From: Candidatus Oxydemutatoraceae bacterium
GTDB taxonomy: Bacteria; Pseudomonadota; Gammaproteobacteria; Poriferisulfidales; Oxydemutatoraceae
NCBI GenBank assembly: GCA_965218975.1
Contig: OZ244717.1
Location: forward strand, 800,001-864,000
Length of the DNA: 64,000 nt
Direction: 5' to 3'
Part shown: one piece after another, positions 4,556 through 37,256 of the stretch
Layout: each line of letters opens with the position of its first letter
Numbering within the stretch: position 1 is the first letter of the stretch
The notes under the pieces: model-generated
The model's database searches: none
The model's input: only the letters and a program-made list of their open reading frames with translations
Told to the model about the DNA's origin: nothing
Made by a program: the position numbers and the translations under genes

Positions 4556-5768
4556 TTTCTGCAAACGACGTAATCGAGTCATTCGATTCGGTATTATACC
4601 GGCGTTATTCGGTTCATTGCTGACTGCTTGCGGTTGGCTGTCCGACTTTAACCGGCGGTTAGTCAATGACGAAGACGAAGACTGGCGGATTGCCGCGCTT
4701 GAAGATTTTTCCGAACGTTTGAAATTAAAAAAAGTATGGTCGCAGTCTATAGGCGATGCGCGAGGCACGACGTTACGACGTCAGCTATTACTGCAAGGTA
4801 ATGTCGTGTTCGGCTGTGGCCCGGATGGGAATGTGTTTGCTTTTTCAGCGCGTGACGGGAAACGTTTGTGGAGTCGCGAGTTTGACACCGAGACTTCTTT
4901 TTGCATCGGCGGTAGCGGACAGGCATTAATGATTGGCGCTATCACGGGTGAAGTGATTGCTTTTTCAGTAAAAAACGGTAATCAGCTATGGCGTACTCGT
5001 TTACGCGGCGGGGCGATTAGTGCTATATCAAAAGTCCGCAACGGCAAAGTTTTAGTCCGTAGCGCTAAGGGGAATATTACTGCCTTATCAGCGCGTAATG
5101 GTAAAACACAATGGCAGATAAAAGAGAAACTGCCGTCGCTGACGCTGCGGGGCATGAGTGTTCCGGTTTTATATGAGCAACAAGCGCTGGTCGGTCTCGA
5201 TGACGGGCGGTTGGTAATACTGTCGTTTGAAGATGGTCGAGTACTCCGGGAAATTCGTGTCGGGCTGATTAAAGAAGGCGACGATCTTGACCGGATTGTT
5301 GACATTGACGGAAAGATTGAAGTGCGTGACGGAATATTTTATGTTACCAGCTACCAGGGACGTACAATCGCGTTTGATCTGCAAAGAAATTCAATATTGT
5401 GGTTCGCCGAAGTAAGCTCTTATCAAGGAGTGGCGCTTGGCAAGGATCATGTTTATTTGGTCAATTCTAATGGCGAATTATTAAAGCTTGATCGCTATGT
5501 CGGTAGCGAAGTATGGACGAATGCGGCATTTTCAATACGCGACTTAACGGTTCCTTTGGCGCTTGGTCAATGGATTGTTGTCGGTAGTGACGACGGCTAT
5601 CTCTACTGGATTGATGCGGAAGACGGTAAGATTGTAGCGCGTTTTAACTCCCGCGATGAGATTGTTAGTCCTCCGCTGCGGTTTGGCAATCAAGTGATCG
5701 CAGTGGATCGCGACGGGGATTTGTTCGCGGTTAAAATAACCGCACGTCTTATTGCCACTAAGAATTGA
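4545..5768 (+). CDS. bamB: Outer membrane protein assembly factor BamB
   Basis: Lipobox LLTAC, PQQ-like beta-propeller repeats, SLTLRGMSVP, DRIVDIDG; conserved synteny. Confidence 0.9.
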   Translation: MAVDFCKRRNRVIRFGIIPALFGSLLTACGWLSDFNRRLVNDEDEDWRIAALEDFSERLKLKKVWSQSIGDARGTTLRRQLLLQGNVVFGCGPDGNVFAFSARDGKRLWSREFDTETSFCIGGSGQALMIGAITGEVIAFSVKNGNQLWRTRLRGGAISAISKVRNGKVLVRSAKGNITALSARNGKTQWQIKEKLPSLTLRGMSVPVLYEQQALVGLDDGRLVILSFEDGRVLREIRVGLIKEGDDLDRIVDIDGKIEVRDGIFYVTSYQGRTIAFDLQRNSILWFAEVSSYQGVALGKDHVYLVNSNGELLKLDRYVGSEVWTNAAFSIRDLTVPLALGQWIVVGSDDGYLYWIDAEDGKIVARFNSRDEIVSPPLRFGNQVIAVDRDGDLFAVKITARLIATKN

Positions 5769-25405: not shown

Positions 25406-26584
25406 GTGATTCGGTGTCTTTTTCTTTCCAACGGTGCGCTGCCGAGTAAGAGATTTATACGCATCTCATTGCTTGGTATTTTTCTGTTGTTGCCGTTCTC
25501 GGTAACCGCTTACGAGGCAATCGTTCCCGACCCACCGCTGTTGTCGGCAGAAAGTTATATTTTGATGGACTATCACACGGCGATGGTACTGGCAGAAAAG
25601 CGTGCGGATGCGGCACATTCCCCGGCTAGTCTGACTAAAGTGATGACCGCCTATGTCGTATATCAAGCGTTGGAAGACGGATTGATTCATTTAAGCGATC
25701 AAGTAAATATCAGCCGGAAAGCACGCCAAGCAATCGGTTCGCGAATGTTTGTTGAGCAAGGATCAAAGGTTGCGGTTGAAGATCTGTTACTCGGTGTTGT
25801 TGTCCAGTCGGGTAACGATGCGAGTATTGCGCTTGCCGAATATGTCGGCGGATCAGAGGCGGGATTTGCCGACCTGATGAATGCGCAGGCAAATCGATTA
25901 GGTTTGACCAATTCTTATTTCATGAATGCCACCGGTTTGTCTGAAAAAAACCACTATATGACCGCACGCGATAATGCAATATTGATCCGGTCTCTGATTC
26001 AAAAATTTCCGACACATTACCGTGTTTATGCGCAAAAGGAATATATCTATAACAACATCCGTCAGTACAACCGCAATCAGCTGTTGTGGAGAAATCTAGG
26101 TGTTGACGGAGTGAAGACCGGCTATACCGAAGCTGCCGGCTATTGTTTTTCGGCATCGGCAAAACGTGACGGGATGCGTTTAATCGCCGTTATTTTAGGT
26201 AGTTCCGGCGAACAGCAGCGACTAGTAGATGCCGAGCGCCTATTTAACTACGGCTTTCGGTTTTATAAGACTTATCGCCTGTATCAAGCGGGCAAATCTC
26301 TGCATCAATTGCGTGTTTGGGGTGGTAAGCAAAAGTATGTTCGTGTAGGAGTGCCGCAAGATTTTTATGTTACGGTGCCGCGCAACGCGACCGGTCAACT
26401 AGAGGTCGAGAAAACTATTCATCAAGCGGTTGATGCGCCGGTAAACTATCATCAGCCCCTTGGCGTTGTTGCTGTTAATGTGACGGAAAAATCCTCGCAG
26501 TCAATGCCTTTAGTAGCGTTAACCCCAGTGCAAAAAGGTAGTTGGATCATTCGTTTGTATGATGCTTTCTTAAAACTATTTTGA
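25406..26584 (+). CDS. dacA: D-alanyl-D-alanine carboxypeptidase (PBP5/6)
   Basis: PASLTKVMT (SxxK), QSGNDA, GVKTGYT; C-terminal PBP5 domain. Confidence 0.92.
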   Translation: MIRCLFLSNGALPSKRFIRISLLGIFLLLPFSVTAYEAIVPDPPLLSAESYILMDYHTAMVLAEKRADAAHSPASLTKVMTAYVVYQALEDGLIHLSDQVNISRKARQAIGSRMFVEQGSKVAVEDLLLGVVVQSGNDASIALAEYVGGSEAGFADLMNAQANRLGLTNSYFMNATGLSEKNHYMTARDNAILIRSLIQKFPTHYRVYAQKEYIYNNIRQYNRNQLLWRNLGVDGVKTGYTEAAGYCFSASAKRDGMRLIAVILGSSGEQQRLVDAERLFNYGFRFYKTYRLYQAGKSLHQLRVWGGKQKYVRVGVPQDFYVTVPRNATGQLEVEKTIHQAVDAPVNYHQPLGVVAVNVTEKSSQSMPLVALTPVQKGSWIIRLYDAFLKLF

Positions 26585-27441
26585 ATCGATTGTCTGCGAT
26601 CGCCTATTTGAACGGCAAATTTTTCCCACTGGAAGAATGTCGTATTTCGGTATTGGACCGTGGGTTTCTATTTGGCGATGGGATCTATGAAGTCATTCCG
26701 GTATATAACCGCAGTGTATTTGAATCCGAGTTGCATTTTGAACGGATGCGCCGAGGGCTTGAAAGAATAGGTATTGCTGTGCCACAGACTGATGCGAAAT
26801 GGCTGGATATTTTTGCCCGCTTAATCCGCGACTCGAAGTGTGACAACTTAGCAATTTATTTACAGATAACCCGCGGTGTCGCACCGCGTAGCCATTACGT
26901 TGTCGATCATATACAACCGACTACATTCGCAATGACTATGGCACTTAGTCGCACGGCAGATGATGTTCTGTGTCAGGGAACCACTGCGATTACCGCCGAA
27001 GATACACGTTGGCATCATTGCGATATCAAAACAATCAGCTTGGCGGCAAATGTCTTATTGCGTAAAAAGGCAGTTGAGGCAAATGCTTACGAGGTCATTT
27101 TGTTTCGTGATAAAGTTTTAACCGAAGGTGCGGCAGCAAATGTCCTTATTGTTTTCGGCACATCTGTTGCTGAGGCGCAGCTTGCGACTCCTCCTAAGGA
27201 TAATTGGATTTTGCCGGGTATCACCCGTGAGGTGGTAAAGCGTCTCGCCGTTGAGCATTCGATTCCGTTTGTTGAAAGACGAATTAGCGAAGAAGAAATA
27301 AAAGCGGCGGACGAAGTATGGCTGACGAGCTCTACCAAAGAAATTTTACCGGTGGTTTCAATTGACGGCCGAACGATTGGCGGCGGAAAACCCGGAGTGG
27401 TACGAGCGCAGTTTAGCCGGTGGTTAAATGCGCTTAAATGA
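26581..27441 (+). CDS. dat: D-amino acid aminotransferase (class IV PLP)
   Basis: DRGFLFGDGIYEV, YLQITRG, DIKTISL, ILPGITR; follows dacA. Confidence 0.88.
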   Translation: MNRLSAIAYLNGKFFPLEECRISVLDRGFLFGDGIYEVIPVYNRSVFESELHFERMRRGLERIGIAVPQTDAKWLDIFARLIRDSKCDNLAIYLQITRGVAPRSHYVVDHIQPTTFAMTMALSRTADDVLCQGTTAITAEDTRWHHCDIKTISLAANVLLRKKAVEANAYEVILFRDKVLTEGAAANVLIVFGTSVAEAQLATPPKDNWILPGITREVVKRLAVEHSIPFVERRISEEEIKAADEVWLTSSTKEILPVVSIDGRTIGGGKPGVVRAQFSRWLNALK

Positions 27442-27581
27442 CCGGGGGATCAGCACAACCCTATTGTCGGCAGCGATTACGAATATCACTGATTGCGGTG
27501 GCGGTGATCATTGCTCCGGACCGTGCTCAACTTGGGGTGTTCTCGATGGGAATTATATACATTCCTAGACAAAGGGGGCAC

Positions 27582-27610
27582 TCGACAAACTCTATCACGC
27601 TTTGTAGTAT
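27582..27610 (+). promoter_or_regulatory. Putative sigma70 promoter for first passenger gene
   Basis: TCGACA-17 bp-TAGTAT, with the ATG 6 nt downstream (possibly leaderless). Confidence 0.4.
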
Positions 27611-27616
27611 CGTCGC

Positions 27617-28174
27617 ATGCCGAAAACATTCTTGGAGAAAACAAAGGGCATATTACGGTTCTTTGGTTGGGAAGCCTTTCAAGCGTGGGTACTCCCATCA
27701 TTATCTGTACCGGTGGCTGTCGTGATAGGTTGGTTGTCATCAGCCCCGTGGTTTTTAGTTTATCTAGGAGCACTGTTCGCCTTTGCAATGACCGCGACTG
27801 GCCTCTTGCGATTTAGTGAATGGCGATTCAAAGTCACGGCACATCACAAGCTGTCATTCTCAAAAATTCTGTTACAGAAAGTGGTATCGGACGAAGGACA
27901 GATGCATAGTATCAAATTTGGTTTTTATCTGTACAACGCAGCCTCTTTCCCTATTGAGTACATCATTCAAGAGATAAGAACCGATTTAGATGGAGAGTAC
28001 TCGCCGAACAAGGAGCATGAGAAGGATGCTTATGTGATTCCGGCATTTGCGTTTGGTTGGTTTTACAATCATGCCATCCCTTTAAGACTTGATCATCCTA
28101 CAGGGAAGTTTGTAGAGGGTGGGCTTCATGCCAAACTCAAGTATGGTCGCCCACAAAACCCTGTCTGCGAATAG
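27617..28174 (+). CDS. Hypothetical membrane protein (IS passenger; possibly truncated)
   Basis: 185-aa ORF with two N-terminal hydrophobic segments. The frame stays open for 24 more codons after the TAG, to a TAA ending at 28249. Confidence 0.6.
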   Translation: MPKTFLEKTKGILRFFGWEAFQAWVLPSLSVPVAVVIGWLSSAPWFLVYLGALFAFAMTATGLLRFSEWRFKVTAHHKLSFSKILLQKVVSDEGQMHSIKFGFYLYNAASFPIEYIIQEIRTDLDGEYSPNKEHEKDAYVIPAFAFGWFYNHAIPLRLDHPTGKFVEGGLHAKLKYGRPQNPVCE

Positions 28175-28301
28175 GAGATCAAGCAAAAGATTATCGTGAA
28201 GTTTAATAATGACGGCGATGTAGAGAACATAGAGTGTTACGACTTATAATCGTCACGAATCTATCAAGGGATGGCCCTTTGCATTTCAGAACTCAAAACT
28301 C

Positions 28302-28330
28302 TTGACACCAACTCCTATTTTTGGTAGATT
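28302..28330 (+). promoter_or_regulatory. Putative sigma70 promoter of transposase copy 1
   Basis: TTGACA-17 bp-TAGATT, followed by AAGGAG before the start codon. Confidence 0.6.
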
Positions 28331-29308
28331 ACTAGACAACAGATAACGACCAAATAAGGAGTGAAGCACATGCCGAAGAAAGCCCCTGGAAAGCATTACC
28401 GAAACGGAATCAGCCTTGTTGAACTGATTGACCGATTCCCTAATGAAGCCTCAGCGCGAGCATGGTTTGAATCTATTCGATGGGCGAAAGGCAGGACGTG
28501 TCCCTACTGTGCATCCGAACACACCAACCCCGTCCCGAACGACAATCCCATGCCTTACCATTGCACGACCTGTCGGAAGTATTTCAGCGTGAGAACGGGA
28601 ACGGTGATGCAATCCAGTAATCTTCCCTTGAGAAAGTGGGTGATCGGGTTCTATCTGATGTCCACAAACCTCAAAGGCGTGTCCAGCATGAAACTGCATC
28701 GGGATTTGAAGGTGACGCAAAAGACGGCGTGGATGATGGCTCAAAAGATTCGGCAAGCATGGGATATGGACAAGGCCTCATTGACTGGGCCGGTCGAAGT
28801 GGACGAGACCTATATCAGGGGGAAAGAGAAGAACAAACACCAGAGCCGGAAGCCGAAGAAACTCAGAGGAACCACGGGGAAGCAGGCCGTCTTGGGGCTG
28901 CGTTCACGTGAGGGTCAGATCACGGCCAAGCCGATTCCAGGCACGGATAGGCAGACATTGTGGGGCGAGATTCAACAGCATGTCGAAAAAGGGAGTACCC
29001 TCTACACGGATGATCATGGAGCCTATCGTGGGTTTGGACTTGTCTGATTACGACCATCATGTGGTCAATCATTCAGCCAAGCAGTATGTGGACGGACAGG
29101 CCCACACCAACGGGATTGAGTCCTTTTGGGCCTTACTGAAACGTGGCTACCACGGGACGTTTCACAAAATGAGTGTCAAACACCTTCATCGTTACGTGAA
29201 TGAATTTGCCGGACGCCATAACATTCGTGAATCAGACACGATTGAACAGATGACATTCTTGGCTCAAGGTGTGGTGGGGAAACGTCTGCCCTATAGGGAG
29301 TTGGTGGC
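28303..29308 (+). repeat. 1,006-bp direct repeat copy 1 (promoter + IS1595 transposase); copy 2 at 31112-32117
   Basis: Direct comparison at offset 2809; at least six substitutions seen. Confidence 0.95.
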
Positions 29309-29312
29309 GTAA
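28361..29312 (+). pseudogene. IS1595-family transposase, frameshifted (copy 1)
   Basis: Zn ribbon CPYC...CTTC, VEVDETY, YTDD, HTNGIESFW, YVNEF. Split into ORFs 28361-29047 and 28908-29312 at CGTGGGTTTGGAC (~29027-29039). Confidence 0.9.
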
Positions 29313-29329
29313 TTGGAACATTTCGTAAG

Positions 29330-30316
29330 ATGAAGAATAACCCACTGCCACGACTCGATAGATCACCAGAATTGCGGAGCAAATTGTTGCCGTATTGTCG
29401 TCTTCAATTAGGAGATATTTGGGTGGATAAAGTGCGTGGTCATCGTGTTGGTTGTCTTGATGCTTCAAATCGTATGGCTGTAGACAGTATTATGGCTGGG
29501 GAACAGGCACAGTTGGCGATTCATGATCCACCGTATAATCTTGCAGCGTTTGAAAAAAGATCAATAACAGAATTTATATCTTGGTGTCAGACATGGGTAT
29601 CTCATACTTACAACGTATTAGCTCCTAATTCTTCGTTATATGTCTGGATCGGTGCTGATCAAAATGATGGATTTCAACCTTTACCCGATTTTGTTCTCAT
29701 GATGCGTGATCAATCTTTTCGTCCACGAAGTCTCATTACGATGAGAAATCAACGAGGATACGGTACTCAAAAAAATTGGATGGCTATTCGCCAAGAGTTA
29801 CTTTATTACACAAAAGGAAATCCTCATTTCTATGTTGATGCCGAATACACAGATATCCCCAAAATCCTTCGTGGGTATTATAAAGAAGTCAATGGTAAGA
29901 CTACGGAAAATCTGGAACGAAGTCGTTCAGATACAATTCGAGCAGGTAATGTTTGGGTTGATGTTCAGCAAATATTTTATCGAATGGAGGAAAATGTTTC
30001 AGGGTGCTACGCACAAAAGCCCATAAAGTGTATTGATAGAATTGTTCGAGCAAGTTCTTCCCCTCATGATGTCGTGATTGATTTTTTTGCACACTCAGGA
30101 ACGACTTTGATTGTATCTGAATTGCTCAACCGAAAATCCTTTACATTTGATGTTGATCCGATCTATGCCGAAATAACAATTCGTCGCCTTGAGCGATTTC
30201 GCTCTACGGGTCTCACGGGATGGCAAAATGGGAATCCTTTTGAGAAGGATGTACCCCACATCGGACTTGGGGAAATAATCATCCCTGAAACTGATTTCCA
30301 AGATACACTTTTTTGA
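29330..30316 (+). CDS. Site-specific DNA methyltransferase (N6A/N4C, beta class)
   Basis: Catalytic DPPY precedes the SAM-binding DFFAHSGTT; QKP motif. Confidence 0.9.
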   Translation: MKNNPLPRLDRSPELRSKLLPYCRLQLGDIWVDKVRGHRVGCLDASNRMAVDSIMAGEQAQLAIHDPPYNLAAFEKRSITEFISWCQTWVSHTYNVLAPNSSLYVWIGADQNDGFQPLPDFVLMMRDQSFRPRSLITMRNQRGYGTQKNWMAIRQELLYYTKGNPHFYVDAEYTDIPKILRGYYKEVNGKTTENLERSRSDTIRAGNVWVDVQQIFYRMEENVSGCYAQKPIKCIDRIVRASSSPHDVVIDFFAHSGTTLIVSELLNRKSFTFDVDPIYAEITIRRLERFRSTGLTGWQNGNPFEKDVPHIGLGEIIIPETDFQDTLF

Positions 30317-30326
30317 GTTTTATCTT

Positions 30327-31136
30327 ATGGAGCGTTTAGAAAAGGTGCTCAATGGCTTGTTGATGCAGCTTTCTAATGAGAGCGACATCAGAGACAGACT
30401 CAGCAATCTTAAATCGGTCTATCCATTCAATGAGTATGAATACATTATATCCCATCTGCTTGCAATGAATGTTCTCACCTTGGATGGTTATTTTGAACTC
30501 CGAGATGAATACATGGAAAGAAATATGTTTCTTTATATTTTTGAAATCAGTGCACCTCGAACTTTTGGAGAATCATGGGCTCAAGGGCATTTGAAAGAGC
30601 TAGTGCAAAGTTTAAAAAAACCATCAAAGAAAATAGACCCAAATTATTCCAGTCAATATGATTTTTATTTAGATGGAATTCGCATTGAAGTAAAAGCCTC
30701 ACGTGTAGTTGATGCGAATTCCGATGAACCGCTTTATGTGAAAGCCCTTTCGTCAGATTCAAAGAAAGAATTCTGGATGAACTTTCAACAAGTGAAACCA
30801 GATTGCTGTGATGTTTTTGTTTGGATCGCTGTTTGGCGTGATGTCATTCAGTATTGGGTATTATCGTCTAATGAAGTCAAAAGAAACCCATATTATTCAC
30901 AAGGCCAACATCGTGGAAATGTCGGTGAAGGTCAATTACATGTCAAACAAGATAATATCGAGGAATTTAAAGACTATAGGGCACAATCTAACAAGATTGA
31001 GGAATCAATTCGTCGTGCATATGTTCGACAAAAAGGAATAACAATGAGCTATGTAAAGCCACAAGATGTTGTCAGTCCACAAGAGCGGTGGAAACTTAGT
31101 CACGTCCTCTATGACACCAACTCCTATTTTTGGTAG
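30327..31136 (+). CDS. Putative PD-(D/E)xK restriction endonuclease; C-terminus fused to a fragment of another gene
   Basis: YDFYLDGIRIEVKAS nuclease-like motif; follows an MTase. Most of the last ~35 aa derive from the 5' region of the gene at 34049, the rest from the transposase promoter region. Confidence 0.62.
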   Translation: MERLEKVLNGLLMQLSNESDIRDRLSNLKSVYPFNEYEYIISHLLAMNVLTLDGYFELRDEYMERNMFLYIFEISAPRTFGESWAQGHLKELVQSLKKPSKKIDPNYSSQYDFYLDGIRIEVKASRVVDANSDEPLYVKALSSDSKKEFWMNFQQVKPDCCDVFVWIAVWRDVIQYWVLSSNEVKRNPYYSQGQHRGNVGEGQLHVKQDNIEEFKDYRAQSNKIEESIRRAYVRQKGITMSYVKPQDVVSPQERWKLSHVLYDTNSYFW

Positions 31137-31169
31137 ATTACTAGACAACAGATAACGACCAAATAAGGA

Positions 31170-32121
31170 GTGAAGCACATGCCGAAGAAAGCCCCTGGAA
31201 AGCATTACCGAAACGGAATCAGCCTTGTTGAACTGATTGACCGATTCCCTAATGAAGCCTCAGCGCGAGCATGGTTTGAATCTATTCGATGGGCGAAAGG
31301 CAGGACGTGTCCCTACTGTGCATCCGAACACACCAACCCCGTCCCGAACGACAATCCCATGCCTTACCATTGCACGACCTGTCGGAAGTATTTCAGCGTG
31401 AAAACGGGAACGGTGATGCAATCCAGTAATCTTCCCTTGAGAAAGTGGGTGATCGGGTTCTATCTGATGTCCACAAACCTCAAAGGCGTGTCCAGCATGA
31501 AACTGCATCGGGATTTGAAGGTGACGCAAAAAACGGCGTGGATGATGGCTCAAAAGATTCGGCAAGCATGGGATATGGACAAGGCCTCATTGACTGGGCC
31601 GGTCGAAGTGGACGAGACCTATATCGGGGGGAAAGAGAAGAACAAACACCAGAGCCGGAAGCCGAAGAAACTCAGAGGAACCACGGGGAAGCAGGCCGTC
31701 TTGGGGCTGCGTTCACGTGAGGGTCAGATCACGGCCAAGCCGATTCCAGGCACGGATAGGCAGACATTGTGGGGCGAGATTCAACAGCATGTCGAAAAAG
31801 GGAGTACCCTCTACACGGATGATCATGGAGCCTATCGTGGGTTTGGACTTGTCTGATTACGACCATCATGTGGTCAATCATTCAGCCAAGCAGTATGTGG
31901 ACGGACAGGCCCACACCAACGGGATTGAGTCCTTTTGGGCCTTACTGAAACGTGGCTACCACGGGACGTTTCACAAAATGAGTGTCAAACACCTTCATCG
32001 TTACGTGAATGAATTTGCCGGACGCCATAACATTCGTGAATCAGACACGATTGAACAAATGACGTTCTTGGCGCAAGGTGTGGTGGGGAAACGTCTGCCC
32101 TATAGGGAGTTGGTGGCATGA
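31170..32121 (+). pseudogene. IS1595-family transposase, frameshifted (copy 2)
   Basis: Near-identical to copy 1 with the same frameshift; has DETYIGG. Stop overlaps the start of the next MTase (ATGA). Confidence 0.9.
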
Positions 32122-33092
32122 AAGAAAGAGCACCAAGAAATCAAACATTGACATGTAGTTTGGAGGAAAAAACGCATTTGTCTGCTAAAATCCTTTATGC
32201 GGATAATCTGAATCATGGTGAGAATGTTGGTGAAAAAATCATTTGTGGTGACATATTTAAGGTTGTAGAAAACCTTCCCCAAAAGTTTGTTGATCTATTG
32301 ATTTTGGACCCCCCCTACAATCTCTCGAAAAACTATAATGGGCATCTTTTCAAAGAAAAAGATAAAGTCGAATACCAAGAATGGTTCGAGCGTGTTGTTT
32401 TGCTTTTAACTCCGACACTGAAATCAACTGCAACCGTATATGTTTGCTCTGATTGGAAAACCTCTATTCTTATTGTTCCAATCCTCGAAACATATTTTCA
32501 TGTTCGCAACCGAATCACTTGGGAGAGAGAAAAAGGACGTGGAGCGAGATCGAATTGGAAAAACAACACTGAGGACATCTGGTTCTGTACGGTTTCCAAT
32601 GATTATTACTTCGATGTGGCTTCTGTAAAATTGAAGCGAAAGGTACTTGCACCATACAGGGTTAACGAGAAACCTAAAGATTGGTATCAGGACGAAAATG
32701 GGAATTATCGTCTCACTTACCCTTCTAACATTTGGACTGATGTAACTATTCCCTTTTGGTCAATGCCTGAAAATACTGATCACCCTACTCAGAAACCTGA
32801 AAAACTCATCGCCAAACTTGTTCTTGCTAGTTCAAAAGAGGGAGATTTTGTATTCGATCCATTTTTGGGTAGTGGAACGACAACCACGATTGCTAAAAAA
32901 CTCGGAAGGAATTTTTGTGGGATAGACATCAATGAGGAGTACTGCTGCTGGGCAGTTAAACGTCTAAAAATGGCCGCTTCCGATAGGACAATTCAAGGAT
33001 ATGTAGACGGCGTTTTTTGGGAGAGAAATTCTCTTGCTGAGCAGCCTGTGAACGTAGCACAATCTTTAAAACAAGAAAAACTTTTGTTGTGA
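32118..33092 (+). CDS. Site-specific DNA methyltransferase (N6A/N4C, beta class)
   Basis: LDPPYN, HPTQKPEKL, DPFLGSGTT, GIDINEEY. Confidence 0.92.
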   Translation: MKERAPRNQTLTCSLEEKTHLSAKILYADNLNHGENVGEKIICGDIFKVVENLPQKFVDLLILDPPYNLSKNYNGHLFKEKDKVEYQEWFERVVLLLTPTLKSTATVYVCSDWKTSILIVPILETYFHVRNRITWEREKGRGARSNWKNNTEDIWFCTVSNDYYFDVASVKLKRKVLAPYRVNEKPKDWYQDENGNYRLTYPSNIWTDVTIPFWSMPENTDHPTQKPEKLIAKLVLASSKEGDFVFDPFLGSGTTTTIAKKLGRNFCGIDINEEYCCWAVKRLKMAASDRTIQGYVDGVFWERNSLAEQPVNVAQSLKQEKLLL

Positions 33093-33757
33093 AATCATCT
33101 TTTTATTACGACGGTCATTATCAAGATGTGGCTGATAAAATTAGAGACTATATCAATGCCTCTCCCGATTTTCTTTCTCCTCAAACAATTGGGAGTCCTA
33201 GAGCTACCGGAGATGCAATAGAATCACTGATTTCAGAAAAGTTTGATACGTTTTTGGGTGACTGGTGTGTTGAATATTCAAGTGATTTTGCTCGTAGGGC
33301 CATGGCTGATCTTGCCTTCACCGATAAGGAACAATTCTATTCTGTTGTTGATGTAAAGACACATAGAGAGAACACGGTATTTAACATGCCGAATCTGACA
33401 TCCGTAGAAAGATTAGCAAGGTTTTATAAAGCGGATGTCAATGTGTTTTCGTTGATCATGGTGAAATATATCATCGACAAGACTCATTTTAGAGCTACGG
33501 AAGTCATTTATTCTCCTATTGAATATCTGGACTGGGGGTGTTTAACGGTAGGCGCATTAGGATGGGGACAGATTCAAATAGCCAATTCCAATTACATTAA
33601 AATAAATCATGGGTATTCACGTAAAAAATGGATGCTTCAATTTTGTGATGTCATGCTCGATTTCTATCCCAAAGAAATTCTGAAAATAAAGGATCGTACA
33701 GGGAGATTTGACACGGTGAAAGCCTATTGGGAAGCAAAAGAAGATGTGTGGAATTGA
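33089..33757 (+). CDS. Putative PD-(D/E)xK restriction endonuclease
   Basis: GDAIE...MADLAF...VVDVKT resembles a PD-(D/E)xK core; GTGA overlap with the upstream MTase. Confidence 0.6.
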   Translation: MKSSFYYDGHYQDVADKIRDYINASPDFLSPQTIGSPRATGDAIESLISEKFDTFLGDWCVEYSSDFARRAMADLAFTDKEQFYSVVDVKTHRENTVFNMPNLTSVERLARFYKADVNVFSLIMVKYIIDKTHFRATEVIYSPIEYLDWGCLTVGALGWGQIQIANSNYIKINHGYSRKKWMLQFCDVMLDFYPKEILKIKDRTGRFDTVKAYWEAKEDVWN

Positions 33758-33808
33758 GAGCATGGAATTCTGTCTTGAATAAGGACTTTGATCAAGTAAC
33801 AATTCATT

Positions 33809-33973
33809 ATGAAACCCCCTAAAAAGACCACCAAACCCAAACGTCCCCGTGGTCGTCCAGTGATACGAATCATCGAGAAGATTGACGCGCCACCCGAAGA
33901 GATTGTCAAAGCCGTCTTTCGGGTGGCGGACCGAAAGCAGAGTGATCGGAATAATGGTAGTCGTGGCACTTGA
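33809..33973 (+). CDS. Small basic protein with AT-hook-like KRPRGRP motif (54 aa; absent from the ORF track)
   Basis: Manual translation: MKPPKKTTKPKRPRGRPVIRIIEKIDAPPEEIVKAVFRVADRKQSDRNNGSRGT. Confidence 0.55.
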   Translation: MKPPKKTTKPKRPRGRPVIRIIEKIDAPPEEIVKAVFRVADRKQSDRNNGSRGT

Positions 33974-33977
33974 GCGT

Positions 33978-34006
33978 TTGACACATTCAAAGCGTAACTG
34001 TACTAT
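33978..34006 (+). promoter_or_regulatory. Putative sigma70 promoter for last passenger gene
   Basis: TTGACA-17 bp-TACTAT. Confidence 0.55.
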
Positions 34007-34048
34007 CATTTCTGGATGTTTCGTCAGGGGCAGCGAAAAGGAATAACA

Positions 34049-34342
34049 ATGAGCTATGTAAAGCCACAAGATGTTGTCAGTCCACAAGAGCGGTGGAAAC
34101 TTAGTCGCGTCCTCTATGACGGCGGAGAGGGTGAGTGGTCTGCCGCAACAGGGTCGTGGAAGAACGACGAGACGGGGGAGGGGAAGGTTCTGGCTATTCG
34201 CTGGAATGGAGAGGGGGAGAATGCAATAGGGCACCCACAATCGTCCGGCCATGCCGTATGGTTTATCGTTCCCGACAAATTGGCGTGCGTCTTACGAGTA
34301 GTGATTAAAGTGATTGCTCTTCTGTCGAAGCGATTAAAGTGA
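34049..34342 (+). CDS. Hypothetical protein ('gene X', IS1595 passenger)
   Basis: AAAGGA RBS before the ATG at 34049; sequence includes SP..RW..VLYDGG..W..LAIRWNG..GHP..WFIVP. Partial copies at 31031-31115 and 36333-36457. Confidence 0.7.
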   Translation: MSYVKPQDVVSPQERWKLSRVLYDGGEGEWSAATGSWKNDETGEGKVLAIRWNGEGENAIGHPQSSGHAVWFIVPDKLACVLRVVIKVIALLSKRLK

Positions 34343-34360
34343 TTGATTTTCTGTCGAAGC
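34303..34360 (+). repeat. 29-bp tandem repeat x2 just inside the IS1595 right end
   Basis: GATTAAAGTGATTGCTCTTCTGTCGAAGC followed by GATTAAAGTGATTGATTTTCTGTCGAAGC. Confidence 0.8.
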
Positions 34361-34463
34361 CGTGAAGAATTATGTCTAGAAATGTATATAATTCCCTTCT
34401 CGATCTAGCTAGCCTCTCAAGCCATCATCATGATGCGATGATGATAACACTGTAGCGAATCGG

Positions 34464-34796
34464 TCAAATATTCTTTGAGTTGAATCTGCTTAGTCTTTTG
34501 AAATTTTCCGGAATGCCGATATCCTCCCATATTCCGGTGTATTGTTCGCCGCTGACCCGATTTGTTTCAATCGCAGGTTTCAGCACCTCGGTTAGCTGAA
34601 ACGGCCGTTGCGATTGCGGTTCAAATAATGCTGCGCGGTAATAGCCGATTCCAGAGAAAGTCAAGCGCAAGTCCGAATGCGGATGATTCATACAAACGGT
34701 ACCATTTTTCAAATGAAAATCCCCCTGACGATGGTGAGGCGGATTAGGTACCAAAATCAGATACGCGAGGCATTGTTCGGGTAGAGTAATTGGTTT
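34464..34796 (-). pseudogene. Duplicated 3' fragment of murU (part of the TSD)
   Basis: Identical to the C-terminal part of the gene at 36579-37256; cut off by the IS end at 34797. Confidence 0.88.
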
Positions 34797-36332
34797 CTTG
34801 ACTTCGTAGGTTTTGACCTTTGGGCAAAAAATAAATCCTTTATTATCATAGGGTTACCCGGACGCTGCCGAAAAACCCTATTGTAGTGCCCCCAGGCTTG
34901 TTTTCACTTGGATTTAGGGTTATCATTCGGGTCTATGTACTTGCGTGAAAAATATGATCCCGAACGTGGCCGCACTCGCTTGCAGATTGTACGTTCCGTG
35001 CGCACTGCCGATGGTCCCCGTCAGCGTGTGGTGCGGCATATCGGCACTGCCGACAGTCCCGAGCAGCTTGCATCTTTGCGCAAGCTCGGCGAGGTCACCT
35101 TGGAAGAGCTGCGCCAAGCCGGTACAGCACAGCAATCGCTGTTCACACCAAAGCAGTACGCGGATCTCGCAGCTGAGGCACGGCGCGCACCGCGTTTGGC
35201 GCGCTTCGGGGTAGATCTTGCCGAATGCCGTGAGGAGATGCGGCTGATACTTGGGGTGCGCGAGGCGTTCACGCAGATTTATTCGCACTTGGGTTGGAAC
35301 CAGGTGTTGGGGCGCGGCGCACAGTAGCGAACCGCATCCTGCGCGAGCTGGTACTGGCGCGTATCGCACAGCCGCAGAGCAAGCGCGCTACGGTGTGCGA
35401 GCTCGAACGAAGCGGCGTTTCGCTCAATCTCGACCGGGTTTACCAGACTATGGATCACCTTGAGGAGGCGGTGATCGCACGCATCCGGGAACAGTCTCAT
35501 CAGGCGGCACAAAAGTTGTATGATCAGCCCCTCAAGGTGTTCTTCTTTGATTGCACGACCCTGTACTTCGAGAGCGAGCAAGAGGACCCGTTGCGCGCGA
35601 AAGGTTATAGTAAGGACGGCAAGCCGCACCGCTGCCAGGTGTTACTGGCACTGATGACGACCTGCGACGGTCTGCCGGTGGACTACGCACTGTTGCCGGG
35701 CAACACCTTTGAGGGCAAAACCTTGATGCAGGCAGTGACAAGTCTGCAACAGAGACATCCGGGTGCTGTATTTACAGTAGTGGCCGATGCGGCGCGTTGG
35801 GACGGCCTGCGCGCAATCATCGCACACGGCAACGAGGAGATGGCGCCAAAGGAATTGCTGTCGCAGTACCGTCGGTTGTGGGAAGTAGAACATTGCTTTC
35901 GCACTAACAAGCATGACCTTTGCATCCGCCCGATCTTTCACTGGAAGCCGCGGCGTATCCAGGCGCACATTGCGATCTGCTATATGGCCTTCTGCTGCTT
36001 GCAGCAGCTGCGCCGGCGGCTCAAAGCGCTAGGCTTCCCGATGAGCGCGGAGCGGGTCCGGCGCGAGCTCGACACCTTGCAGTTGAGCATCTTGGCACAT
36101 ACCGACACACAGAAGCGGTATGCGATGCCGAGCCGCGCGAGCGCAGACGCCAACAGGATCTACCGTAGTGTCGGCCTGAAATGGAACGAAGCTCCGTTCC
36201 CGCTTCCCGACAAGTCACGCCCTGGGGGAAGCTGAGCGCGGAGGGCTACAAACAACACCGTAATGTAGTGCCCTTGAGAATCCTGAAGGCAATAATATCA
36301 ATCACTTACGAGACAAAACCTACGAAGTCAAG
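34797..36332 (+). mobile_element. IS1634-family insertion sequence (defective)
   Basis: 19-bp perfect TIRs CTTGACTTCGTAGGTTTTG / CAAAACCTACGAAGTCAAG, IS1634-type transposase, long flanking duplication. Confidence 0.9.
34935..36235 (+). pseudogene. IS1634-family transposase, frameshifted and probably internally deleted
   Basis: FFDCTTLYFE, GYSKDGK, PGNTFE, VVADA, YRRLWEVEHCFR..K, IRPIFHW. Frameshift at the G-run ~35309-35312. VVADA runs directly into ARWDG, where a long region is expected. Confidence 0.85.
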
Positions 36333-36578
36333 AGAATCCGCTTGGTCATCCAATTTCCCGCTCTCGTCCCGTATGGTTTATCGTTCCCGACAAATTGGCG
36401 TGCGTCTTACGAGTAGTGATTAAAGTGATTGCTCTTCTGTCGAAGCGATTAAAGTGATTGATTTTCTGTCGAAGCCGTGAAGAATTATGTCTAGAAATGT
36501 ATATAATTCCCTTCTCGATCTAGCTAGCCTCTCAAGCCATCATCATGATGCGATGATGATAACACTGTAGCGAATCGG

Positions 36579-37256
36579 TCAAATATTCTTTGAGTTGAAT
36601 CTGCTTAGTCTTTTGAAATTTTCCGGAATGCCGATATCCTCCCATATTCCGGTGTATTGTTCGCCGCTGACCCGATTTGTTTCAATCGCAGGTTTCAGCA
36701 CCTCGGTTAGCTGAAACGGCCGTTGCGATTGCGGTTCAAATAATGCTGCGCGGTAATAGCCGATTCCAGAGAAAGTCAAGCGCAAGTCCGAATGCGGATG
36801 ATTCATACAAACGGTACCATTTTTCAAATGAAAATCCCCCTGACGATGGTGAGGCGGATTAGGTACCAAAATCAGATACGCGAGGCATTGTTCGGGTAGA
36901 GTAATTGGTTTGGGTTGCCAATCCGTATAAATGTCGCTGTTTATTACCAGCCATGGACTATCGCCGAGCAAAGGCAGCGCTTTGCGAATTCCGCCACCGG
37001 TTCCCAGTCGTTGATCCCCTTCATCCGACCAGCGGATACGTACACCATAACGATTGCCGTCGCCTAAATCATTCATAATTTTTGTGCGCAAATGAGAAAC
37101 ATTGATTACAATCTCATTGAATTGGGCTTGTTTAAGTCGTCGGATATGTCTTCCAATTAAAGTTTCCCCACCGATTTTTAACAGAGGTTTGGGCGTGGTA
37201 TCAGTCAAAGGTCTGAGCCGTTCGCCGCGTCCGGCAGACAGAATCATCGCTTTCAT
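36579..37256 (-). CDS. murU: N-acetylmuramate alpha-1-phosphate uridylyltransferase
   Basis: MKAMILSAGRGERLRPLTDTTPKPLL, GTGGGI, VPNPPHHRQGDF; downstream of amgK. Start set at the ATG at 37256. Confidence 0.88.
   Translation of the reverse strand: MKAMILSAGRGERLRPLTDTTPKPLLKIGGETLIGRHIRRLKQAQFNEIVINVSHLRTKIMNDLGDGNRYGVRIRWSDEGDQRLGTGGGIRKALPLLGDSPWLVINSDIYTDWQPKPITLPEQCLAYLILVPNPPHHRQGDFHLKNGTVCMNHPHSDLRLTFSGIGYYRAALFEPQSQRPFQLTEVLKPAIETNRVSGEQYTGIWEDIGIPENFKRLSRFNSKNI

Follow-up and report, generated by a model that had tools for sequence, protein, structure and literature searches.

The window analysed here is a stretch of 64,000 nucleotides from Candidatus Oxydemutatoraceae bacterium (assembly GCA_965218975.1, contig OZ244717.1, positions 800,001 to 864,000), and positions are those of the window except where host-genome coordinates are named. 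It contains a 6.85-kb element of the insertion sequence (IS) family IS1595, bounded by terminal inverted repeats (TIRs) and a target site duplication (TSD) and holding two transposase pseudogenes and two stacked methylase-nuclease pairs. The features of the element, including its open reading frames (ORFs), are as follows.

27540..27547, no strand: left TSD, 8 bp, TTCTCGAT
27548..27571, + strand: left TIR, 24 bp; ends near-identical in the related loci L054-L056 and L058-L060
27617..28174, + strand: slot-1 passenger, a 185-aa ORF with a hydrophobic N-terminal half; promoter-like site at 27582-27610
28302..28330, + strand: promoter-like site of the transposase gene (TTGACA-17-TAGATT, TG); conservation seen in five relatives
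28370..29312, + strand: Tnp1, IS1595 transposase pseudogene; PF12760/PF12762 and NF033547 in two frames, extra base at 29033-29035
29330..30316, + strand: M1, N6/N4 DNA methyltransferase (DPPY), 328 aa; PF01555 E 2.8e-29, PADLOC MTase_II
30327..31136, + strand: R1, Type II restriction endonuclease family; PADLOC REase_II E 7.5e-81; the native sequence reaches 31032 and a 35-aa fusion tail follows
31031..31115, + strand: 85-bp duplicate of the orf97 5' end; a TGAC microhomology joins it to the -35 box of the Tnp2 promoter
31179..32121, + strand: Tnp2, the other transposase pseudogene, with 99.3% identity to Tnp1 and the extra base repeated at 31842-31844
32118..33092, + strand: M2, N6/N4 DNA methyltransferase (DPPY), 324 aa; PF01555 E 2.7e-41, PADLOC MTase_II
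33089..33757, + strand: R2, predicted SwaI/HincII/EcoRV-like restriction endonuclease by fold match, 222 aa, full length
33809..33973, + strand: orf54, small basic ORF; conserved backbone gene ahead of the right TIR in the lineage
34049..34342, + strand: orf97, small conserved hypothetical gene with 21 homologues; promoter-like site at 33978-34006
34373..34396, - strand: right TIR, 24 bp
34397..34404, no strand: right TSD, 8 bp

The original prediction, made from the sequence alone, described a fully delimited element with 24-bp TIRs and an intact 8-bp TSD, and these boundaries stand: the TIRs pair at 23 of 24 positions with one mismatch, and TTCTCGAT is present at both 27540-27547 and 34397-34404, an 8/8 match expected by chance at about 1.5e-5. 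Short-read contigs cross the left TSD and TIR unbroken in all four of the read sets X1-X4. The gene content predicted between the TIRs (a membrane ORF, transposases, methyltransferase-nuclease pairs and two small genes) was also found as described. Both the Zn-ribbon and the ISXO2-like DDE domain that mark IS1595 were detected (PF12760 and PF12762 above cut-off; NF033547 at 125 bits, N part). Passenger genes lie between the TIRs, as in a transporter insertion sequence (tIS), and the intact transposase ORF of an autonomous IS is missing. The element thus belongs to the IS1595 family and to the tIS class, showing every feature tested but an intact transposase; the class reportedly goes back to Siguier, Gagnevin and Chandler in 2009. 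A compound or pseudo-compound transposon was considered and rejected: no TIR occurs inside the element at ≤5 mismatches, so no two complete IS copies flank the cargo.

Two transposases had been predicted, and both are present, but as pseudogenes with an identical +1 frameshift. Each carries one extra base relative to the intact 316-aa transposases of two related loci (L055 and L056), and the frameshift region is free of gaps in short-read contigs of X1, X3, X4 and X5, the last from another study. A programmed frameshift was rejected on the +1 direction, the run of just three T, and the single intact ORFs of the relatives. Tnp1 and Tnp2 differ at six internal positions, three of them in the final 65 nt, a pattern that would fit a local duplication in which the 3' end and the cargo were exchanged together. 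The sigma70-like promoters of the original prediction fared less well. Sites do occur at 27582, 28302 and 33978, but the region holds no excess of such sites over shuffled sequence (14 against 12.6 +/- 3.5), and among the three, conservation backs only the transposase promoter. The dead transposase genes likely still supply a promoter to the cargo.

Read depth separates two forms of the locus. M1-R1 is covered at 0.85-0.95 times the flanking depth in X1-X4, and M2-R2 at depths of 60.7, 98.6, 23.3 and 8.9. A joint running from 31032 to 33831, which skips Tnp2-M2-R2, is present in every one of these runs (depths 43.5, 41.4, 10.3 and 5), and the depths of the two forms add up to 0.81-0.99 times that of the flank, with two-system shares of 0.58, 0.70, 0.69 and 0.64. 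The collapsed transposase sequence stands at 1.55, 1.72 and 1.51 times the flank, compared with 1.58, 1.70 and 1.69 expected from one plus the share. A one-system and a two-system form therefore coexist in the sampled population.

The structure of R1 bears on the direction of the change between them. In the two-system form R1 runs in frame into the 85-bp orf97 duplicate, ending in the Tnp2 promoter, and the TGAC joint there is bridged by a short-read contig of X4 (31072-31507). The nearest R1 homologue (97% identical, 244 aa, with a different C-terminus) diverges from R1 exactly at 31032/31033, the point at which the two forms branch, and the skipping joint has 0 shared letters, although a clean deletion should leave one or more. 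Because R1 is truncated and fused exactly at the branch point and the joint lacks a shared letter, the one-system form, with a native R1 end, is likely ancestral and the two-system form derived. A candidate source of the second module appears in another read set, X6, in which dat and murU, the host genes on either side of the element, have next to no cover. Its 1883-nt contig carries the Tnp end, M2, R2 and orf54 with 20 differences and is a possible donor of M2-R2; in further joints of X6 the space from the Tnp end to orf54 is taken up by different cargo. X8 yielded pieces only, at a small share.

Beyond the right end, a second insertion sequence preserves what may be an older state of the element. 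The flanks hold the following features.

26581..27441, + strand: dat-like aminotransferase class IV, host gene of the left flank; PF01063, best NCBIfam match TIGR01121, sub-cut-off
34254..34795, no strand: direct repeat, left copy, 542 bp (orf97 3' end, right TIR, TSD and murU 3' end), 100% identical to 36369-36910
34796..36333, + strand: IS1634-family element; NF033559 238 bits, 376-bp internal deletion (1538 vs 1914 bp)
36334..36368, + strand: 35 bp left over from another orf97 allele; single occurrence genome-wide
36369..36910, no strand: direct repeat, right copy, with a second right TIR (36488-36511) and TSD
36579..37250, - strand: whole murU-like nucleotidyltransferase, host gene; PF00483, with amgK upstream (NF045759, sub-cut-off)

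The element had been placed between convergent dat and murU. The host genes are convergent, but what lies beside the right end is a duplicated piece of the murU 3' end and no more; it is followed by the 1538-bp IS1634, a second right TIR with its TSD, and then murU entire. The 35-bp remnant matches 34219-34253 at 18 of 35 nt, with equal length and frame and with the invariant G and P kept, and it occurs in X1 short-read contigs and is covered in X5. X1 covers the left-copy orf97 allele at the full depth of 113, which means that both living forms carry it. The simplest reading would be a 577-bp duplication, after which the interior of the element was replaced up to a conserved coding patch at 34254. 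The remnant is likely a fossil of an earlier cargo, and orf97 is probably chimeric, with two alleles meeting near 34254.

Such a duplication would be in keeping with the family. The neighbour has the transposase of IS1634, and long, variable direct repeats, known from some members, are seen here as well: nine of 15 paired copies in the host genome are flanked by strict repeats of 21-616 bp from the IS end. Passages of PMC2266710 describe long variable target duplications of 8-514 bp for IS1634/IS1549, comparable to the 542-bp repeat flanking the present copy; the difference from those cases is that the 35 bp beside the IS mismatch the left copy and record an earlier cargo. Several further IS1634 ends in the host genome are unpaired. 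The repeat (34254-34778) stands at 1.3 times the flanking depth in X3 and 1.9 times in X1, and the IS1634 insertion may itself be polymorphic.

Both methylase-nuclease pairs have a methyltransferase with catalytic motifs beside a nuclease gene, and both are predicted to be Type II restriction-modification (RM) systems. The start of M2 overlaps the stop of Tnp2. PADLOC matches REase_II strongly for R1 and weakly for R2; invariant residues are D112, E121 and K123 in R1 and D74, D88 and K90 in R2. A sequence search of the PDB returned only a weak HincII match for R2 (E 0.037) and no match for R1. The predicted model of R2 (predicted local distance difference test, pLDDT, 90) resembles R.SwaI (Z 18.4, root-mean-square deviation 4.1, 211 residues aligned), HincII (12.9) and also EcoRV; that of R1 has a PD-(D/E)xK core (Z 10.0 to NhoI) and a fusion tail with pLDDT <50, modelled as disordered. 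The top fold matches of R1 include the modification-dependent enzymes NhoI and Eco15I, so the mode of R1 is not settled by its fold. The most depleted hexamers of the genome are CATATG (0.41) and TTTAAA (0.61), and the latter, together with the SwaI-like fold, may serve as a lead for the R2 site only. Strong genome-wide depletion is also seen for GGCC (0.50) and TCGA (0.66).

The homologue families are large, at 5300 for R1 and 4182 for R2, and among 251 genomes sampled from the Nitrospira order, M1/R1 and M2/R2 were matched in 6 and 16, with no transposase within 1.5 kb of any of these M/R loci. The host genome itself has an M2/R2 homologue (57%/56% identical; host-genome positions 84592-86261) whose methylase, at 85245-86261, is intact and whose nuclease contains an internal stop; this locus lies downstream of a tRNA-like sequence and is without a transposase. 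An orphan methylase may protect against its cognate nuclease, and if the resident enzyme methylates the same site it could ease the gain and loss of R2, which could explain the polymorphism. No text on such protection came out of a literature search.

Across GTDB genomes, 77 loci related to the element were recovered, 31 of them delimited by a TIR pair and an 8/8 TSD. The nearest transposases are 82-92% identical, in Nitrospira/Nitrospirales metagenome-assembled genomes (MAGs), with 75% in a Nitrosomonadaceae MAG. Identity of the host RecA is 68-69% with the two Nitrospira genomes, 73% with Ruthturnera and 77% with the Nitrosomonadaceae genome, so that the host is probably a proteobacterium. 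The element has therefore likely crossed phyla, given a transposase 92% identical to those of Nitrospira elements where RecA reaches 68-69%. Six of the eight nearest loci have near-identical TIRs, one transposase and a length of 2.8-3.5 kb, laid out as TIR, slot-1 gene, transposase, cargo, orf54 and TIR. A methylase stands behind the transposase in seven of the eight, none closely related to M1 or M2. Apart from the methylase fold, the cargo of those six loci shows no relationship to M1/R1 or M2/R2.

IS1595 had been proposed as a vehicle for RM genes, and for the lineage this stands: a methylase or restriction gene is carried by 12 of the 31 delimited relatives (76 selected ORFs scanned, with L060 counted through its identity to L059), and the host genome holds four more IS1595-methylase units, one of them fully delimited, as well as one IS1595 without RM genes. 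The delimited unit (host-genome positions 1808924-1811587) has TIRs pairing at 23/24 and the TSD TATTTTAT, and holds a methylase together with a transposase and a nuclease-like gene that are both frameshifted. The 6.85-kb unit, by contrast, does not appear to have been delivered whole, because its transposases are frameshifted, directly repeated transposases are seen in none of the 31 delimited relatives, the second module is polymorphic, and the IS1634 repeat keeps another allele. Nor did the proposed search of the genome for the TIR yield a second copy of the element, at ≤5 TIR mismatches. At 352600-356200 of the host genome, an IS1595 transposase and methylase abut a CRISPR array, with no terminal repeat found there. 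Two related IS1595 loci (L088 and L109) carry Panacea/SocA antitoxin-domain genes and GmrSD, a cargo wider than Type II RM.

We consider it probable that a smaller IS1595 tIS with a single transposase arrived at this site and was later remodelled in place, by recombination, to two stacked methylase-nuclease pairs. A member of the lineage, perhaps from a donor in another phylum, would have inserted between dat and murU and made the 8-bp TSD now seen. IS1634 would have followed about 400 bp past the right end, duplicating 577 bp, of which 542 are visible and 35 presumed; the interior would then have been replaced up to the conserved orf97 patch, which leaves the older allele in the 35 bp on the far side of IS1634. 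The +1 frameshift of the transposase may have come before, between or after these two events. Finally, some members of the population would have exchanged the 3' end of R1 for the orf97 5' end and Tnp2-M2-R2 through two microhomology joints, either by local duplication or by integration of a circle with exchange via the Tnp 3' end and orf54; the two forms are observed together, and the direction and route of the change between them are presumed.

Several points weigh against this history. X1-X4 come from one study, are not independent and may include the assembly's own sample, and contig depth is not equal to a share of cells. The letters of the one-system form between R1 and orf54 are unread, so that its native R1 end is presumed from the break points of unitigs and from the nearest R1 homologue; in the two-system form the 31032/31033 joint is bridged by none of the short-read contigs listed, and none of the pieces listed spans the whole element. 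As for an empty site in relatives, dat and murU are convergent, adjacent and uninterrupted in five of 18 family relatives, all five from one genus (no murU lies within 1.5 kb of dat in the remaining 13). This gives an empty site by gene order; for one at the DNA level the relatives are too distant, the host genome being the sole member of its genus among 41 genomes. Lastly, the M1/R1 and M2/R2 cassettes are usually free-standing in the loci seen, since only one weak match to an IS1595 transposase lies within 1.5 kb of their homologues at 23 other loci.

The obvious alternative is that the two-system element was built elsewhere, moved in as a 6.85-kb unit and then decayed, the one-system form being a later deletion. 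The enclosure of everything within one TIR pair and one intact TSD would suit such delivery, as would the majority held by the two-system form in all four runs, but both transposases share one frameshift, the one-system joint has no shared letters and falls at the start of the native R1 C-terminus, tandem transposases are absent from the 31 delimited relatives, and the allele of the interior preserved in the IS1634 repeat is a different one; we judge this account unlikely. Assembly error, in which the transposase repeat led two strains, or two alternative alleles carrying M1-R1 or M2-R2, to be merged into one contig, seems very improbable. The population is mixed and has repeats of 1 kb, 85 bp and 542 bp, and no listed read or contig covers the element from end to end; however, M1-R1 is at nearly full depth and is equalled by M2-R2 plus the skipping joint, the transposase depth agrees with one plus the M2-R2 share, and a contig of X4 bridges the TGAC joint. 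Continued mobility, by read-through of the frameshift or with another IS1595 transposase acting in trans, would draw on the intact TIRs and on an intact 314-aa IS1595 transposase elsewhere in the genome (43% identical, with 17 of 24 TIR bases at its right end). It is distinctly unlikely, as it needs a +1 shift in a run of three T where relatives have single ORFs, and the genome holds one copy, with no empty-site joint in the short-read contigs of X1-X4.

A further alternative concerns why the cargo persists and is compatible with the remodelling history set out above: the stacking may be selfish accretion without defence benefit, maintained by post-segregational killing or simply neutral, with the tailed R1 and R2 perhaps silent, as they lie behind frameshifted transposases. 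RM addiction is described as established in passages of PMC2853133, nucleases are lost or broken in other IS1595-RM units of the host genome, the nuclease of the resident M2/R2 homologue holds a stop, and M2-R2 is not fixed. Set against this, M1, M2 and R2 retain their full length and their catalytic residues, and the change in R1 is confined to a tail predicted to be disordered. We regard selfish accretion as possible but doubtful; the activity of the enzymes and any benefit in defence are for now presumed from these sequences.

IS1595 elements with RM cargo have precedent (PMC2853133, in part) and are common in this lineage. Passages of PMC11891212 and PMC5704250 cite IS1595-family tISs with methylase or regulator passengers, including ISNha5, MTnSag1/tISSag10 and tISCpe8. 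These resemble the present element in the DDE transposase, TIRs of about 25 bp, an 8-bp TSD and passengers within the TIRs; as far as those passages go, they differ from it in that here two directly repeated, frameshifted transposases lie within one TIR pair, as do two methylase-nuclease pairs, with content polymorphic at a single site. The portions of Furuta, Abe & Kobayashi 2010 (PMC2853133) relevant here describe two RM units: that of N. gonorrhoeae has 26-bp inverted repeats, an 8-bp TSD and a COG3677 transposase that is likely inactivated, and that of X. oryzae has 65-bp inverted repeats and an 8-bp TSD. RM genes within inverted repeats, the 8-bp TSD and a dead transposase are thus shared with our locus, but those units, as described there, hold one system each, whereas here two are stacked, a backbone lineage with a variable slot can be traced and intermediate states are visible.

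Two other comparisons are instructive. Tn7560 with the IS1595-family ISApl4, in the part of PMC12561309 that treats it, likewise has directly repeated transposases with cargo between them and can recombine, but each of its ISs is complete with its own TIRs; at our locus the second transposase has no TIR and one pair bounds all. The E. coli hsd and Streptococcus DpnI/II/III loci (PMC2853133 and PMC12707154, in the passages concerned) also show alternative RM content at one site in one population; there the shared flanks are host core, whereas here they are transposon backbone genes found across phyla. In the literature searched no cassette exchange or stacking in IS1595 elements was found, although Siguier 2009 may already list methylase cargo and the supplementary tables of Furuta 2010 may hold further precedents. 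The new part is the stacking of cargo in a stranded copy, caught as a polymorphism.

Turnover of a cargo slot is thus likely on view, with three states at one site (fossil allele, one-system and two-system), two of which coexist in the sampled population in the absence of a working transposase. More tentatively, and with a good deal of doubt, stranded IS1595 tISs may serve as platforms for cassettes without an integrase: the conserved backbone, made up of orf54, orf97 and the promoter and 3' end of the transposase, would offer cross-phylum homology arms and a promoter, RM systems would be swapped and stacked in place after the death of the transposase, and the population would be split into lineages with one system and with two by a one-way restriction barrier, possibly buffered by the resident orphan M2-like methylase. 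If this were general, dead transposons would be landing pads on which defence systems cross phyla and accumulate into small defence islands. The locus also offers a natural test of whether the gain of a restriction system splits a population.

The small genes of the element are less readily interpreted. The slot-1 ORF has no family in Pfam, NCBIfam or PADLOC and only hypothetical matches in the Atlas, and its protein is dissimilar to the slot-1 protein of L059. The tblastn matches of orf54, with which DNA alignment agrees, extend to 21 of the 77 related loci. For orf97, Pfam, NCBIfam, PADLOC and the Atlas gave no family. Its candidacy as an IS1595 backbone gene was rejected; it is a passenger, because none of 80 metagenome loci (many on short contigs) has a transposase match. 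A 29-bp tandem duplication at 34300-34357, in the orf97 3' end, occurs in both repeat copies, and the C-terminus is altered relative to the homologues. Homologues of R1 and orf97 (P0142/P0002 and P0147/P0011) have longest contigs of equal size (12396 and 140865), a hint that they travel together elsewhere. Members of the orf97 family (L132-L211) have a promoter-like sequence of their own and stand first before other genes in the six loci read; orf97 is possibly a leader of defence operons.

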